A DNA stretch of 64,000 bases from a virus. The position numbers and the translations under genes are program-made. This document shows positions 19,861 through 28,476 of the stretch, one piece after another. Position 1 is the first letter of the stretch, and every line of letters starts with the position of its first letter. The notes below the pieces were generated by a model, which was given only the letters and a program-made list of their open reading frames with translations, was not told the DNA's origin and did not search any database. The stretch lies in IMG/VR virus record IMGVR_UViG_3300034358_000044, positions 64,001 to 128,000 of that record, one strand, 5' to 3'.

Positions 19861-21492
19861 CTACCCGGTGACGAAGCTGTTCATCACCGTGGGGACGTCA
19901 GTCGAGAAGCCGACCACGTCCAGCATACCGGCATCGTTGGGGTCGGCGATGGTGAACCCGTTGCTCACCATGCCGCAGACGATGAGCTTGGCATCGATGC
20001 CAGTCTCCTGCCGGTACTGACGCAGCGCCTGGAACGGGTGGACCACCCCAGCGTACGTCTCTGAGTCCGTGTAGATCACGAACACGTCCACCTTCAGCTT
20101 CTCCTTGAGAGCGTACTGCATGGGGAGAGAGCAGTCGGTGGTCCCGAAGGGGATGTCCGAGATGGACCTGACCGCCTCGGGGAGCTTCATCTTCGGGGAC
20201 AGCTTGAGGGGCTTCAGCTGCGTCCCGGAGCCCCAGAGCCCGGAGCTGCCGCCGACCCCGAAGCCCACGATGTGGTGCCATGGCTCGGTCCTGGCCGTCA
20301 CCAGCGACATGGCGGCCGAGGCGTCCCTGGGGGTCAGGTTCGAGCCCGCGACGGAGCCGCCCGACATGGACCCCGAGACGTCGAGAGCCAGCAGGTAGCG
20401 CTTGCCGGTGGGCACGATGGTGTCGAAGGCCATGTAGAAGGCCTCGTCCAGCGCATCGACCACGTTGCTGTCGGGATTCCACGACAGGCTGCCCTTGAGG
20501 CCGTGCCCTGAGCTGTAGGTGCTCTGGGCCATCAGCAGGGCCATGGGGTGGATCCTGGCCTTCCTGAGGGCTTCCTTGTCCCCCAGGCGGGCAGCCACGA
20601 AGTGGGAGGCGTCGGAGAGGGGCTTGATGAGGCCGATCTCCGTCATCTTGCCCAGGTTGCGCACCATGGCGGTCAGCGGCATGCCATTGCCCGAGGTCAA
20701 GAGGGCGTCCCAGACCTTGACCGAGTTCAGCATCTGGGTGGGCACGCACTCCCTGGGCAGGTTGTAGTCCGTGATGAGCTGGACCATCTCGGTGTCCTTG
20801 GTGACCACCTTGGCCATCTCGAAGCCCCGGATGAGGGCGGGCACGAGCGGCTGGGCGGACTGCTCCGCCGGCAGCTTGCCGACCGCCCACTGGTAGCTCA
20901 GCTTCTGGACTTCGCTCTTCGGCTTGGGCTTCGCCTTCCGGAGGATGTCCCGGTGCGACCAGCCGTTCCGGCTCTGGTACTTCACCAGGTTGAGGGCGAG
21001 CGAGTCGGGCTGCTGGTTCTCGTACCAGCGGGTGAAGCCCCTCTTGGTGACGCGGCCCCAGCCACCCAGCTCCTTCACCGCCTCCGCCATCTGGAAGAGG
21101 TGAGTCCCGATGCGGCAGACCTGAGGGATGGAAGCCGAGGCCAGACGGCGCGTCTCGACGTCGCCCTCCTTCAACGCCAACGCGAGGGCGAAGATGGCAG
21201 GGTCGTTCTTGGGCGCCTTGCCCCCGCTGCTCACGTCGATGATGAGGTTGATGGCCTTCCCGCCATCTTCCTTGATGCACTCGACGACGCTGGCAGCGTT
21301 CTCCTGGGTCAGCTTCTTCTCCGAGGCGTAGTACGACCCGCCTTCAGAGCCCAGGATGAGGAACCGCTTGAAGCGTGTCCACTTGTCAGCGGCGAAGACG
21401 AAGCCACCTGCGGAGTTCTTCACCTGCGCCATGCCCGGAACCGGTTCGGTCTGGACGGTCTTCTTCGTTGAAACGTGCTTCCCGTAGTTCAT
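19861..21492 (-). CDS. rsr: Ro60/TROVE-vWA RNA-binding protein (Rsr ortholog)
   Basis: NSAGGFVF, RFLILGSEGGSYY, KYQSRNGWSHRDILR, MPLTAMVRNLGKMT, RIHPM; vWA MIDAS LDVSGSM, GTTDCSLPM, YTDSET, DAGMLDVVGF; ATG 21492 with GGGAGG. Confidence 0.95.
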   Translation of the reverse strand: MNYGKHVSTKKTVQTEPVPGMAQVKNSAGGFVFAADKWTRFKRFLILGSEGGSYYASEKKLTQENAASVVECIKEDGGKAINLIIDVSSGGKAPKNDPAIFALALALKEGDVETRRLASASIPQVCRIGTHLFQMAEAVKELGGWGRVTKRGFTRWYENQQPDSLALNLVKYQSRNGWSHRDILRKAKPKPKSEVQKLSYQWAVGKLPAEQSAQPLVPALIRGFEMAKVVTKDTEMVQLITDYNLPRECVPTQMLNSVKVWDALLTSGNGMPLTAMVRNLGKMTEIGLIKPLSDASHFVAARLGDKEALRKARIHPMALLMAQSTYSSGHGLKGSLSWNPDSNVVDALDEAFYMAFDTIVPTGKRYLLALDVSGSMSGGSVAGSNLTPRDASAAMSLVTARTEPWHHIVGFGVGGSSGLWGSGTQLKPLKLSPKMKLPEAVRSISDIPFGTTDCSLPMQYALKEKLKVDVFVIYTDSETYAGVVHPFQALRQYRQETGIDAKLIVCGMVSNGFTIADPNDAGMLDVVGFSTDVPTVMNSFVTG

Positions 21493-21503
21493 GTTGCCTC
21501 CCA

Positions 21504-21530
21504 TTCAGCTCGTGAATCCCACGAGCAAGG
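21504..21530 (-). promoter_or_regulatory. Circularly permuted Ro-binding hairpin in the rsr leader, adjacent to the RBS
   Basis: CCUU-GCUCGUG-GGAUU-CACGAGC-U-GAA directly followed by UGGGAGGCAAC-AUG. Confidence 0.6.
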
Positions 21531-21555
21531 AACCGCGACTCTGACGGTGAAACGT

Positions 21556-22089
21556 TCAGCTCCTGAACGCCTTGGTGTTTCTCTGGGCCGCGAGAGCGAC
21601 CCCTGCTGCAGAAGCGGCCAGATTCAGGGAGGGCCTGACGTTCTCCCTCTCCTGCTCCAAGGCTTCCAGTCTGTTCGAGACGTGGATGAGCTGCTCGGCC
21701 AGGCTCTCGTACTCCTCGCGGGAGACGTAGGATTTCCTTGCCTGCTGCTTCACCAACTCCTTCATCCCCTTGCGGAACTCCTTACCTTGGTCGGAGTTCG
21801 AGAGGGCGGCGAAGAGGATCATGTCGTCTTCGGACCAGACGTGCATGTCGGCCCTGAGATACTTCAACTGAAAGGTCTCTCGGTTCTGCTGGAGAAACGA
21901 AATTGCGCCAATGTCGTTGGCGCAATTGCCGTCGAACTCGTCCCGGTGATTGAGGTAGACGTTCCTGAGGTTTCTCTCAGTGACGCCCAACACACCGGAG
22001 AGAACAGAGCCCGTAGTGAACAGGGTCCCGTCCTCGTCCTCCATCATGGGGACATTCAGATTGTTGAACTGCCAGGTCATCAGTCGCAT
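21556..22089 (-). CDS. Bro-N/antirepressor-like DNA-binding protein
   Basis: N-terminal FNNLNVPMMEDEDGTLFTTGSVLSGVLGV and C-terminal coiled coil; ATG 22089 with AAGGAG. Confidence 0.55.
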   Translation of the reverse strand: MRLMTWQFNNLNVPMMEDEDGTLFTTGSVLSGVLGVTERNLRNVYLNHRDEFDGNCANDIGAISFLQQNRETFQLKYLRADMHVWSEDDMILFAALSNSDQGKEFRKGMKELVKQQARKSYVSREEYESLAEQLIHVSNRLEALEQERENVRPSLNLAASAAGVALAAQRNTKAFRS

Positions 22090-22110
22090 GCGTTCTCCTT
22101 CAAGGGGGAT

Positions 22111-22141
22111 AAAAAAAGAGGCCCCCACTCTCATGGGAGCC
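22111..22141 (-). terminator. Intrinsic terminator at the end of the tRNA/Y RNA transcript
   Basis: GGCUCCCA-UGAGAG-UGGGGGCC stem followed by UC and U7. Confidence 0.75.
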
Positions 22142-22142
22142 C

Positions 22143-22332
22143 ACGGGCAAGACGATGCTGCTCTAGGCGGGAGGTGGACATCCCTTGCGGGTACCTCGTC
22201 CGTTTCCCTACGAGACTCCCAGCAATCAGAGTCTGGGAACTATTCAGTCAAGAGCGCCGGATTGGCGATGCCCTCGAACTTGGCAACTCTCAGCCCAAGC
22301 TCTTTTCGGGTAACCTAGAACCATCAGCCCGC
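22143..22332 (-). ncRNA. Y RNA-like module E (long)
   Basis: 5' GCGGGC-U-GAUG pairs with 3' CGUCUU-GCCCGU (bulged Ro helix) and encloses several hairpins. Confidence 0.55.
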
Positions 22333-22342
22333 TTCAAAAGAA

Positions 22343-22428
22343 GAGTGAACAAGAAGTGAAACTCGGTGGGACCCTTTTGATCGGGTCCAGCGTTTTGGGC
22401 TGGAGAACCAAGTCTCTTCGGCTCACTC
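22343..22428 (-). ncRNA. Y RNA-like module C
   Basis: GAGUGAGC-C-GAAG / UUCUU-GUUCACUC, 8 bp plus bulged C; two internal hairpins. Confidence 0.7.
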
Positions 22429-22435
22429 AAGAAAA

Positions 22436-27380: not shown

Positions 27381-27452
27381 GGCGAAGTACGGGACTCGAA
27401 CCCGTGTTTCAAGAGTCACAATCTTGCGTCCTGCCGCTGGACGAACTCCACC
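27381..27452 (-). tRNA. tRNA-His(GTG)
   Basis: CAAGA-UU GUG AC-UCUUG; G-1:C73. Confidence 0.9.
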
Positions 27453-27586
27453 ATACAACTGTTGAACCACCCTCTTCGCCCGGCCTTGTGTTGGAAAGGG
27501 CAAGCCCTCTGGGTCTCTCACCCAGTGAAACAGCTCACTTCAACTTCGAAGCTGCTGCACCCTCCGGCGCCTACTTAGGTTCAACA

Positions 27587-27658
27587 TGCACCAAGAAGGA
27601 ATTGAACCTTCCACCTCACGCTTATCAGGCATGCGCTCTACCAATGAGCTACTGGTGC
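27587..27658 (-). tRNA. tRNA-Ile(GAT)
   Basis: CAUGC-CU GAU AA-GCGUG. Confidence 0.9.
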
Positions 27659-27664
27659 GAACTT

Positions 27665-27874
27665 CTACTTCTTGATCTCCTTCCAGTTACCACTGAACCT
27701 TTCTTCCCAATATCCAACTGGAATGGACAGATCATCAGACCCGCCTTCTGGAGGAAGCCCCTTCATCCAGTAAGGTCTGTGTCCCAACATCGTGAGGAGT
27801 TCCTTTTCATTGACGATTCTAGGACTACGCTCAACAACACGTTGACCACCAAGATGAAGCTCGAATGTTCTCAT
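27665..27874 (-). CDS. Hypothetical protein
   Basis: ORF MRTFELHLGG... fills the gap between two tRNAs. Confidence 0.45.
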   Translation of the reverse strand: MRTFELHLGGQRVVERSPRIVNEKELLTMLGHRPYWMKGLPPEGGSDDLSIPVGYWEERFSGNWKEIKK

Positions 27875-27875
27875 G

Positions 27876-27949
27876 TCGAGGAGACAGGATTTGAACCTGC
27901 GATCTCTTGGATCCGAACCAAGCGCGATACCAGTCTTCGCTACTCCTCG
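27876..27949 (-). tRNA. tRNA-Pro(CGG)
   Basis: CUUGG-UU CGG AU-CCAAG. Confidence 0.9.
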
Positions 27950-28050
27950 ATGGCCGGCAGTACCCGACGTACACTCGGGTCTCTTGGCTGTGCGCTCCCT
28001 GTTGCCAGGTGCCACTGTACCGGAGCCACTCAACTGAGTGGGTGAAGCTG

Positions 28051-28124
28051 TCGGGGCGAGAGGATTTGAACCTCCGACCACTTGCACCCCAAGCAAGTGC
28101 GCTACCAGGCTGCGCTACGCCCCG
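28051..28124 (-). tRNA. tRNA-Pro(GGG)
   Basis: CUUGC-UU GGG GU-GCAAG. Confidence 0.9.
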
Positions 28125-28324
28125 ATGTCCTTCACTTCTTGAAACCTACGAACTTCTCCTTCAGGCCCTACTGGGATGACGCTGAAGAACATCCACTTCG
28201 GACGGACCCATGTTTCTCCCGTCTTGATGTTCTTGTAGACCACCAGCTCTTCGAGAGTCTCTGAGTGCTTCGCTTCGCAGATGAGCTCGTAGAGACCACC
28301 AGTCTTGTAGTGCTTGTAGATCAT
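28115..28324 (-). CDS. DUF1653-family protein
   Basis: [28 protein letters not shown]...WVRPKWMF signature. Confidence 0.85.
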
Positions 28325-28343
28325 GTGTCCTCGTGAAGATGAA

Positions 28344-28476
28344 GATGGGCAAGGTATTAGACTTGGGGTTTAAGCGCTCTACCGCTGAGCTACCCCGAGA
28401 TAGAATCCCGGGGGCAAGGAGTTGAACCTCGCGACCTCTCCATTATGAGTGGTAATCCAAATCAGTTCAGCCCATC
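28344..28476 (-). ncRNA. YrlA-type Y RNA #2
   Basis: 5' GAUGGGC-U-GAAC / 3' CCUU-GCCCAUC; T arm CGAGG-UUCAACU-CCUUG, capped acceptor-like stem CCCCGGGA/UCUCGGGG, D arm UA-GCUC-AGCGGUA-GAGC; no anticodon arm. Confidence 0.85.

Follow-up and report, generated by a model that had tools for sequence, protein, structure and literature searches.

A Ro60 gene and six predicted Y RNA genes in and beside a tRNA island

The 64,000-nucleotide stretch analyzed here, positions 64,001 to 128,000 of the IMG/VR virus record IMGVR_UViG_3300034358_000044 (below, the window; G+C content 58%), contains a Ro60–Y RNA system, with rsr, the gene for the Ro60 protein Rsr, a short way downstream of a tRNA island on the minus strand and six predicted Y RNA genes on the strand of rsr (Table 1). 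The distinction of three kinds among these six genes is well supported by their predicted structures: two are tRNA mimics (A and B), three are short hairpins termed mini-Ys (Y1–Y3), and one is a long Y RNA (Y4). The complete record comprises 195,735 bases and is rated as complete by CheckV. DNA nearly identical to that of this peat-soil phage occurs in several peat metagenomes, with no RNA run listed among those that contain the locus, and no DNA-level relative was found among 50,697 phage records. In contigs from four other peat runs that were compared with positions 21400–28600, the array was identical wherever it was covered; one divergent variant across Y RNA A was not interpretable.

Table 1. 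Features of the Ro60 locus, in window coordinates; (-) denotes the minus strand.
Feature	Position	Strand	Remarks
rsr, Ro60 orthologue (TROVE and Ro60-type vWA)	19861–21492	(-)	543 aa from the ATG at 21492; Pfam and PDB matches
Y1, mini-Y hairpin	22510–22573	(-)	64 nt; R1 41.3 bits, E 1.5e-8; fold z −2.53
Y2, mini-Y hairpin	22436–22501	(-)	66 nt; R1 56 bits, E 1.8e-12; fold z −5.15
Y3, mini-Y hairpin with branched insert	22343–22428	(-)	86 nt; R1 32.8 bits, E 2.5e-6; fold z −4.40
Y4, long Y RNA with multi-branched, non-tRNA-like interior	22143–22332	(-)	190 nt; two-motif signature; conservation in L084
YrlA-like Y RNA A	25818–25945	(-)	R2 79.7 bits, E 3.9e-18; begins directly after tRNA-Val(GAC)
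YrlA-like Y RNA B	28344–28476	(-)	133 nt; R2 76 bits, E 3.4e-17; 1 nt past tRNA-Pro(UGG)
Leader of the Y RNA array, two local hairpins	22574–22647	(-)	74 nt, from tRNA-Arg(UCU) to Y1; sequence blocks in common with L084 8953–9039; local hairpins in the folds of both phages
Intrinsic terminator of the Y RNA array	22119–22142	(-)	10-bp stem, then T run; conserved in L084
rsr leader hairpin, candidate Rsr operator	21497–21530	(-)	CCUUG, stem CUCGUGG, loop, stem UCACGAG, CUGAAU, leading into the GGGAGG ribosome-binding site
GAGC-U-GAAC, weak seventh signature copy of the first-pass annotation	21554–21562	(-)	spans the stop codon of ORF 21556–22134; normal-orientation pairing possible with 21523–21528
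tRNA island, 41 genes	22648–31307	(-)	ARAGORN and Rfam; Y RNA genes interleaved, all on the same strand
HNH endonuclease gene	23166–23765	(-)	inside the tRNA island
192-aa ORF	21556–22134	(-)	between array terminator and rsr; weak anti-repressor (Ant)-like match, PHROG 5060, E 2.2e-4

The product of rsr is a full Ro60 orthologue. Its open reading frame (ORF) extends to an in-frame ATG at 21504, which gives an alternative protein of 547 amino acids; the true start is likely the second ATG, which is preceded by a GGGAGG ribosome-binding site, and the resulting shorter form is already on record (P0001). The first-pass annotation had described an intact TROVE-vWA gene, and this was borne out by matches to both Pfam domains, the HEAT-repeat ring of TROVE (PF05731, E 1.2e-39) and vWA_Ro60 (PF25045, E 4.6e-64, residues 369–545), as well as by end-to-end alignments with solved Ro60 proteins. 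The best PDB match was Xenopus laevis Ro60 (1yvp, E 5.8e-123), and Deinococcus radiodurans Rsr (2nvo, E 7e-116) and the RO60 entry 9nen were likewise aligned. The DxSxS motif of the metal ion-dependent adhesion site (D375/S377/S379) was invariant in an alignment of 30 homologues. Protein searches returned about 8,000 Ro homologues, the closest of which were 60–67% identical, and the best phage matches were actinophage "Ro-like RNA binding proteins" with 40–44% identity. In the Ro60 family, the outer surface binds Y RNA, and the central hole takes single-stranded RNA ends.

For the Ro-binding helix of the Y RNAs, we scanned both strands for a stem followed by C, C/U, and GA, and then by CUUG and the complementary stem, with at least five extra stem pairs. 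The minus strand of positions 19861–28476 gave six non-overlapping matches, whereas the frequency in the remainder of the window predicts about 0.9 (P 4e-4). A second, GGUUAYC-like motif was present 5–6 nt downstream in all six. When both motifs were required, the six observed matches stood against 0.07 expected (P 2e-10), and the rest of the window gave a single match on both strands together. The closing stems vary between the copies yet stay paired (GGCGAGC/GUUCGCC, UACGAGC/GCUCGUA, GUGAGC/GUUCAC, and GGGC/GCCC), which upholds the covariation of flanking bases that had been noted before, except for a GUC/GAC helix that has no counterpart in the relative L084 described below. All six modules folded as self-closed units; Y4 had a z-score of −1.95, and those of the other five ranged from −2.5 to −5.2. 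Every module folded independently when the array was folded as a whole. Y1–Y4 form a tandem array (22143–22573) in which the modules follow each other head to tail with U-rich spacers of 7–10 nt, and Y1–Y3 lie 0.85–1.1 kb upstream of rsr.

Independent covariance models recover five of the six modules

Scans of the sequence collections gave 82 viral (IMG/VR) and 80 metagenome Ro loci, many of which again show the two-part signature upstream of Ro. We built two covariance models, one for mini-Ys (R1) from 51 short hairpins of other loci, and one of the YrlA type (R2) from 29 longer elements with a T arm and a D arm; the phage analyzed here and L084 were excluded from both. The hairpins described by R1 have a bulged closing helix, in which stem, C, bulge, and GA face UUG and the return stem; they also have a second helix and a loop that starts with GGUUAYC. 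Y1–Y3 show all of these features. Helix 2, which had played no role in the choice of sequences, was 80.6% paired, with compensatory changes at six of eight pairs. On the whole genome, R1 had no further match at E 0.01 besides Y1–Y3. R2 aligned with A and B over their full length, including Ro helix, T arm, closed acceptor-like stem, and D arm, and the minimum-energy folds agreed with these alignments; elsewhere in the genome, R2 gave weak matches only, which were partial matches on tRNAs and one on Y3. The independent models thus recovered five of the six modules with E values from 2.5e-6 to 4e-18.

Both families are associated with Ro genes. In the 82 IMG/VR Ro loci, all 73 matches of R1 and all 56 matches of R2 were on the Ro strand, most of them within about 1 kb of the gene. 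Y1–Y3 belong to a family of conserved hairpin RNAs of about 65 nt that occur almost only beside Ro genes and on the Ro strand. No Rfam model was found for this family, and at the gathering thresholds Rfam detected tRNAs only. As a separate observation, four RNAs from other loci (L107 474–581, L110 628–733, L145 23–127, and L144 7827–7944) contain tRNA parts in normal order within a Ro-binding helix, with D arm, anticodon-like arm, and T arm in place of the permuted YrlA order, and they look like a further class of Y RNA.

The sole close relative that was compared, the 35.8-kb metagenome contig L084, encodes a Ro protein with 66% identity and has the same tRNA order as the phage. Two of its YrlA-like genes follow the same two tRNAs, Val(GAC) (4098–4227) and Pro(UGG) (1916–2047), which means that the junction positions of A and B are conserved, and a third (9041–9175) heads the tandem array. 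L084 also contains six R1 hairpins, a long homologue of Y4, the terminator, and the same hairpin before rsr; altogether, there are ten Y RNA genes in L084 and six in the phage. Y4 is kept at its 5' end (CGGGCUG..GG..AGGUUACC) and its 3' end (GUCUUGCCCG), as is the terminator behind it. The stems change between copies as well as between the two phages, with pairing retained. The identification of the elements as Y RNAs agrees with independent covariance models, with their strand and position bias, and with synteny in the relative.

A hairpin with a swapped Ro site precedes rsr

The first-pass annotation had counted at least seven signature copies on the rsr strand, six of which are well supported by our scan. 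The seventh was rejected: in the normal orientation, with CCUUGCUC at 21523–21530 as the 3' strand, it had only three extra pairs, was absent from the minimum-energy fold (z −0.36), and had no counterpart in L084. Its 3' strand belongs to a conserved leader hairpin that abuts the rsr ribosome-binding site. In this hairpin of 6–7 bp, the two halves of the Ro site occur in swapped order, and the outer stem is closed by the loop. The same arrangement was found less than about 50 nt from the Ro start in 16 loci, L084 included, and its stems covary (CUCGUG/CACGAG, CUCAG/CUGAG, CCCGAG/CUCGGG, UCCGA/UCGGA, and CUCCG/CGGAG). The alignment of the element was 100% paired with three compensatory pairs, for sequences that had been picked for pairing. 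The motifs G.C[CU]GA[AC] or GNCGAAN0-1G were found less than 50 nt from the start in 11–12 of 127 non-redundant leaders, which is no more than in some coding windows. As there is no general motif enrichment in leaders, the element is clade-specific and not universal. Judged from its sequence, the hairpin mimics a Ro site at the rsr ribosome-binding site, and free Rsr may use it to limit its own translation.

Another conserved leader hairpin, GUGCCG(A/G)(A/G)AGUUGGCGGCAC, was observed in L092, L094, L096, L099, and about 40 similar metagenome loci. It sometimes contains CCGAAG and follows the last mini-Y, ahead of the ribosome-binding site and 25–45 nt upstream of the Ro start.

Comparison with known Ro60–Y RNA systems

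A and B resemble YrlA (RF02553), which is known from Salmonella Typhimurium, Mycobacterium smegmatis, and 22 phages (PMC4201824; structure in bioRxiv 10.1101/312249). They share with it the 5' G-N-C/U-GAA in a bulged closing helix, the T arm, the closed acceptor-like stem, the D arm, and the location on the strand of Ro, and a published 5' probe for M. smegmatis YrlA targets a sequence similar to the 5' stem-loop of B. Unlike YrlA, they score below the gathering threshold of the family, B has a U for a conserved C, and they are located in a tRNA array 4–7 kb from rsr, where they abut tRNA 3' ends, in two copies here and three in L084. Y1–Y3 are similar to S. Typhimurium YrlB and D. radiodurans Yrn2 (PMC4201824) in being short hairpins with a Ro-binding motif and a pyrimidine-rich loop start whose genes lie between rsr and other Y RNA or tRNA genes. 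They appear to be set apart by a second helix that covaries and by a loop that starts with GGUUAYC, both shared across their sequence family, and there are three to six tandem copies instead of one.

In D. radiodurans, too, a single precursor from upstream of rsr includes several Y RNAs together with a tRNA (Yrn2–tRNA-Asp–Yrn1, with four small RNAs a–d upstream of rsr), as we predict for the phage. There, one Y RNA tethers Rsr to PNPase, whereas such tethering is only proposed for the phage, which differs further in being a phage and in having 41 tRNAs and six Y RNAs. In Thermus phage phiLo (PMC12135203), a phage Ro60 likewise has Y-like RNAs (Yrl1 and Yrl2) upstream and no phage PNPase, and the host PNPase has been proposed as the partner. 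However, the two Y-like RNAs of phiLo are known by their CGAA motif, and no tRNA-mimic class, tandem array, or tRNA island has been described. Bxz1-type mycobacteriophages such as Catera and the Gordonia phage Sixama have a Ro-like RNA-binding protein with about 40–44% identity, but fewer and weaker Y RNA matches, none of which is annotated.

How unusual is a set of six Y RNAs? Three bacteria have been reported with at least two Y RNAs each, and YrlA-type RNAs are known from 254 bacteria and the 22 phages mentioned above (PMC4201824); phage phiLo has two Y-like RNAs (PMC12135203). When we scanned six cultured phages with R1 and R2, we obtained zero to four candidates each, none of them annotated in the records. 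In Catera, one YrlA-like and two weak mini-Y candidates were located in the gap that precedes Ro (L171 5576–5919). Sixama had four, including two YrlA-like ones between annotated tRNAs (L172 8672–9006), Cashline and Sparky had two each, FuzzBuster had one, and Phosso had none. A strict two-motif scan of 164 loci, which was tuned to the motif of this phage, ranked the phage (six) and L084 (eight) first. The repertoire had been called unusually large, and this holds in comparison to the roughly two per locus that have been published and to the cultured phages; but totals of four to six recur among the 82 IMG/VR loci (six in L074; five in L006, L002, and L004), and L084 has ten. Large same-strand tRNA arrays beside Ro are also recurrent. 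The system represents a known kind, in a variant whose copy number is at the upper end of the range.

Further features of the locus

The 192-aa ORF between the array terminator and rsr is missing at the corresponding position of L084 and is probably an insertion outside the Ro60 system; together with the HNH gene, it looks like a mobile insertion. Within the tRNA island, ARAGORN detected a second tRNA-His with the anticodon AUG at 30001–30075 (-), in addition to the normal His(GUG) at 27380–27451, and L084 has an equivalent at 1085–1158. The tRNA at 22724–22810 (-), to which ARAGORN assigned an undetermined type with a two-base anticodon call and which has a tRNA-Sec-like Rfam score of 38.8 bits below the threshold, is probably a long-arm tRNA of the Ser type. 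A structured element of 135 nt (27452–27586 (-)) lies between tRNA-Ile(GAU) and tRNA-His(GUG) and has a closing helix of 8 bp and several hairpins. Its counterpart in L084 (2584–2718) differs at 17 of 135 positions, although the Ro proteins are only 66% identical. This element had no Rfam match, and an exact 26-mer search of viral contigs found nothing.

Proposed mechanism and alternative functions

Taken together, the locus very likely encodes a phage Ro60–Y RNA system in which six Y RNA genes share their strand with rsr; the steps by which it would operate are proposed from this arrangement. Several points weigh against this interpretation. Y4 has no support from a covariance model and was recognized by the two motifs and by one relative, with a fold z-score of −1.95. 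As the seeds of R1 and R2 were chosen by the same helix signature, the pairing of helix 1 is partly circular. A and B are 4.3 kb and 6.9 kb away from rsr, which is farther than in the characterized bacteria, as the Y RNAs of Salmonella and Deinococcus have been reported at 2 kb from Ro. The Rfam YrlA model found both A (36 bits, E 7e-5) and B (25.5 bits, E 0.079), but below its gathering score of 69, and we therefore name them YrlA-like and not members of RF02553. With respect to the GNCGAAN0-1G motif, A fits with GCCGAAG, whereas B has GCUGAAC, with the U for C and the closing G out of register. In four of the six modules, and in all ten of L084, CUGA replaces the near-invariant CCGA of the family; with a U at this position, binding by the phage Rsr is assumed. 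Finally, how the Y RNAs are processed, what they interact with, and what they do for the phage are proposals. The CUGA usage may mirror a matching change of Rsr in this lineage.

None of the six Y RNAs has a recognizable promoter of its own, and no sigma-70-like promoter was found across 19500–31500. A and B abut tRNA 3' ends, and Y1–Y4 follow tRNA-Arg behind the conserved leader and end at a single terminator. The Y RNAs would thus be made as parts of long tRNA/Y RNA precursors, from which host tRNA-processing enzymes probably release them, with additional cuts at the U-rich spacers. The model for such a precursor is provided by Yrn2–tRNA–Yrn1 of Deinococcus and by the YrlA/YrlB precursors of M. 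smegmatis (PMC4201824). Each Y RNA would bind one ring of the phage Rsr via the conserved helix, and the variable module would set the action of the particle. By analogy to RYPER and to phage phiLo, the tRNA-like modules may recruit an elbow-binding host factor or the host PNPase, and complexes of Rsr, YrlA, and PNPase have published precedents (PMC4201824, PMC12135203). The mini-Ys would mainly gate or store Rsr. The likely net effect would be that host RNA decay or quality control is retuned around the large tRNA supply of the phage. In domain and family searches, RtcB, a CCA-adding enzyme of the PolyA_pol type, and an RNase PH/PNPase-core domain were all absent from the whole genome, and partners of these kinds must therefore be host proteins. 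For RtcB, this extends the absence that had been noted for the window to all 196 kb. A family search for T4 Rnl1 gave no match anywhere, its controls included.

As candidate functions, the first-pass annotation had suggested protection or repair of the tRNA pool, redirection of a host exoribonuclease, and decoys. With regard to the last, A and B could mainly be decoys which, with or without Rsr, soak up a tRNA-directed defence nuclease of the host or a tRNA-binding enzyme and thereby spare the 41 tRNAs. We regard this as unlikely, even though A and B are located within the tRNA island, mimic the tRNA elbow, and occur in a phage that has no RtcB-type RNA ligase for cut tRNAs, and even though YrlA has been proposed as a competitive inhibitor of an anticodon nuclease in Salmonella (PMC7790460). 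An anticodon loop and a free CCA end are both missing from RNAs of the YrlA type (bioRxiv 10.1101/312249), which cannot imitate the usual target sites of anticodon nucleases and are therefore, on structural grounds, unlikely decoys against them. In addition, decoys would leave unexplained the four Y RNAs that are not tRNA-like and the strict linkage to Ro genes.

It is still less likely that 22143–22573 stays uncut and works as a single multivalent RNA, a scaffold or sponge along which a number of Rsr rings would be loaded. Such a scaffold was one of the RNA classes named by the first-pass annotation, of which the tRNA mimics and the mini-Ys stand. The idea had drawn on a GUC/GAC pairing of the CCGAAG segment in the array leader (around 22629) with a segment inside Y4 (around 22252), which would enclose the array. 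We rejected this outer helix, since the leader segment forms a local hairpin, and L084 has a different and longer local hairpin at this place and no GUCCGA. As the enclosing helix is not conserved, the scaffold has lost its support. The head-to-tail order of four modules with short spacers and the single leader and terminator would fit a common RNA, and dimers and higher-order particles of Ro60 with its Y-like RNAs have been reported for phage phiLo (PMC12135203). However, each module folds alone, the spacers are U-rich as well as short, the number and order of modules differ between the relatives (four versus seven in the array), and those known bacterial Y RNAs that are made as polycistronic precursors are processed (PMC4201824).

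Finally, it is highly improbable that some of the elements are no Ro ligands at all, with A and B being decayed or rearranged tRNA genes and Y1–Y4 being operon spacers or processing hairpins that share a motif by descent: A and B do score below the Rfam YrlA threshold, ARAGORN and R2 do give partial matches on true tRNAs, and tandem duplication alone could spread a motif, but both families accompany Ro genes in phage and metagenome contigs that differ widely, without exception on the strand of Ro and with compensatory changes. Moreover, a closed stem together with the permuted order of T arm, acceptor-like stem, and D arm is a hallmark of YrlA and not of tRNA decay, and L084, with a Ro identity of only 66%, retains both elements at the corresponding tRNA junctions.

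Starting from the Ro60–Y RNA system as the favored interpretation, we tentatively put forward a further-reaching proposal, which is possible but doubtful. Phage Ro60 loci may be modular "adaptor libraries", in which a tRNA operon delivers 4–10 tandem Y RNAs that share one Rsr handle and carry different cargo modules, and the swapped Ro-site mimic at the rsr ribosome-binding site, which it overlaps, may serve as an Rsr operator that controls the particle output. When not bound to Y RNAs, Rsr would block translation of its own mRNA, and Y RNAs would titrate it off the operator.

Significance

To our knowledge, the role of bacterial and phage Y RNAs, and the reason why there are several per locus, are still unsettled, and such RNAs have been studied only in Deinococcus, Salmonella, M. 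smegmatis, and one Thermus phage. The Ro60–Y RNA system described here does not in itself represent a new kind, and what it does during infection is only proposed. Together with L084, the phage provides a natural comparison set of 6–10 Y RNAs with one handle and different cargoes that are tied to a full tRNA set. There are now two working covariance models, one of which covers the mini-Y family that is missing from Rfam, and these models pick out unannotated Y RNAs in the cultured and genetically tractable actinophages Catera, Sixama, Cashline, Sparky, and FuzzBuster. The leader hairpin offers a concrete hypothesis of how Ro60 levels might be matched to Y RNA levels. If the proposal of adaptor libraries with an Rsr operator is true, it would provide Ro60 with its first described autoregulatory circuit, and phage Ro systems with a general layout that has not been described before.

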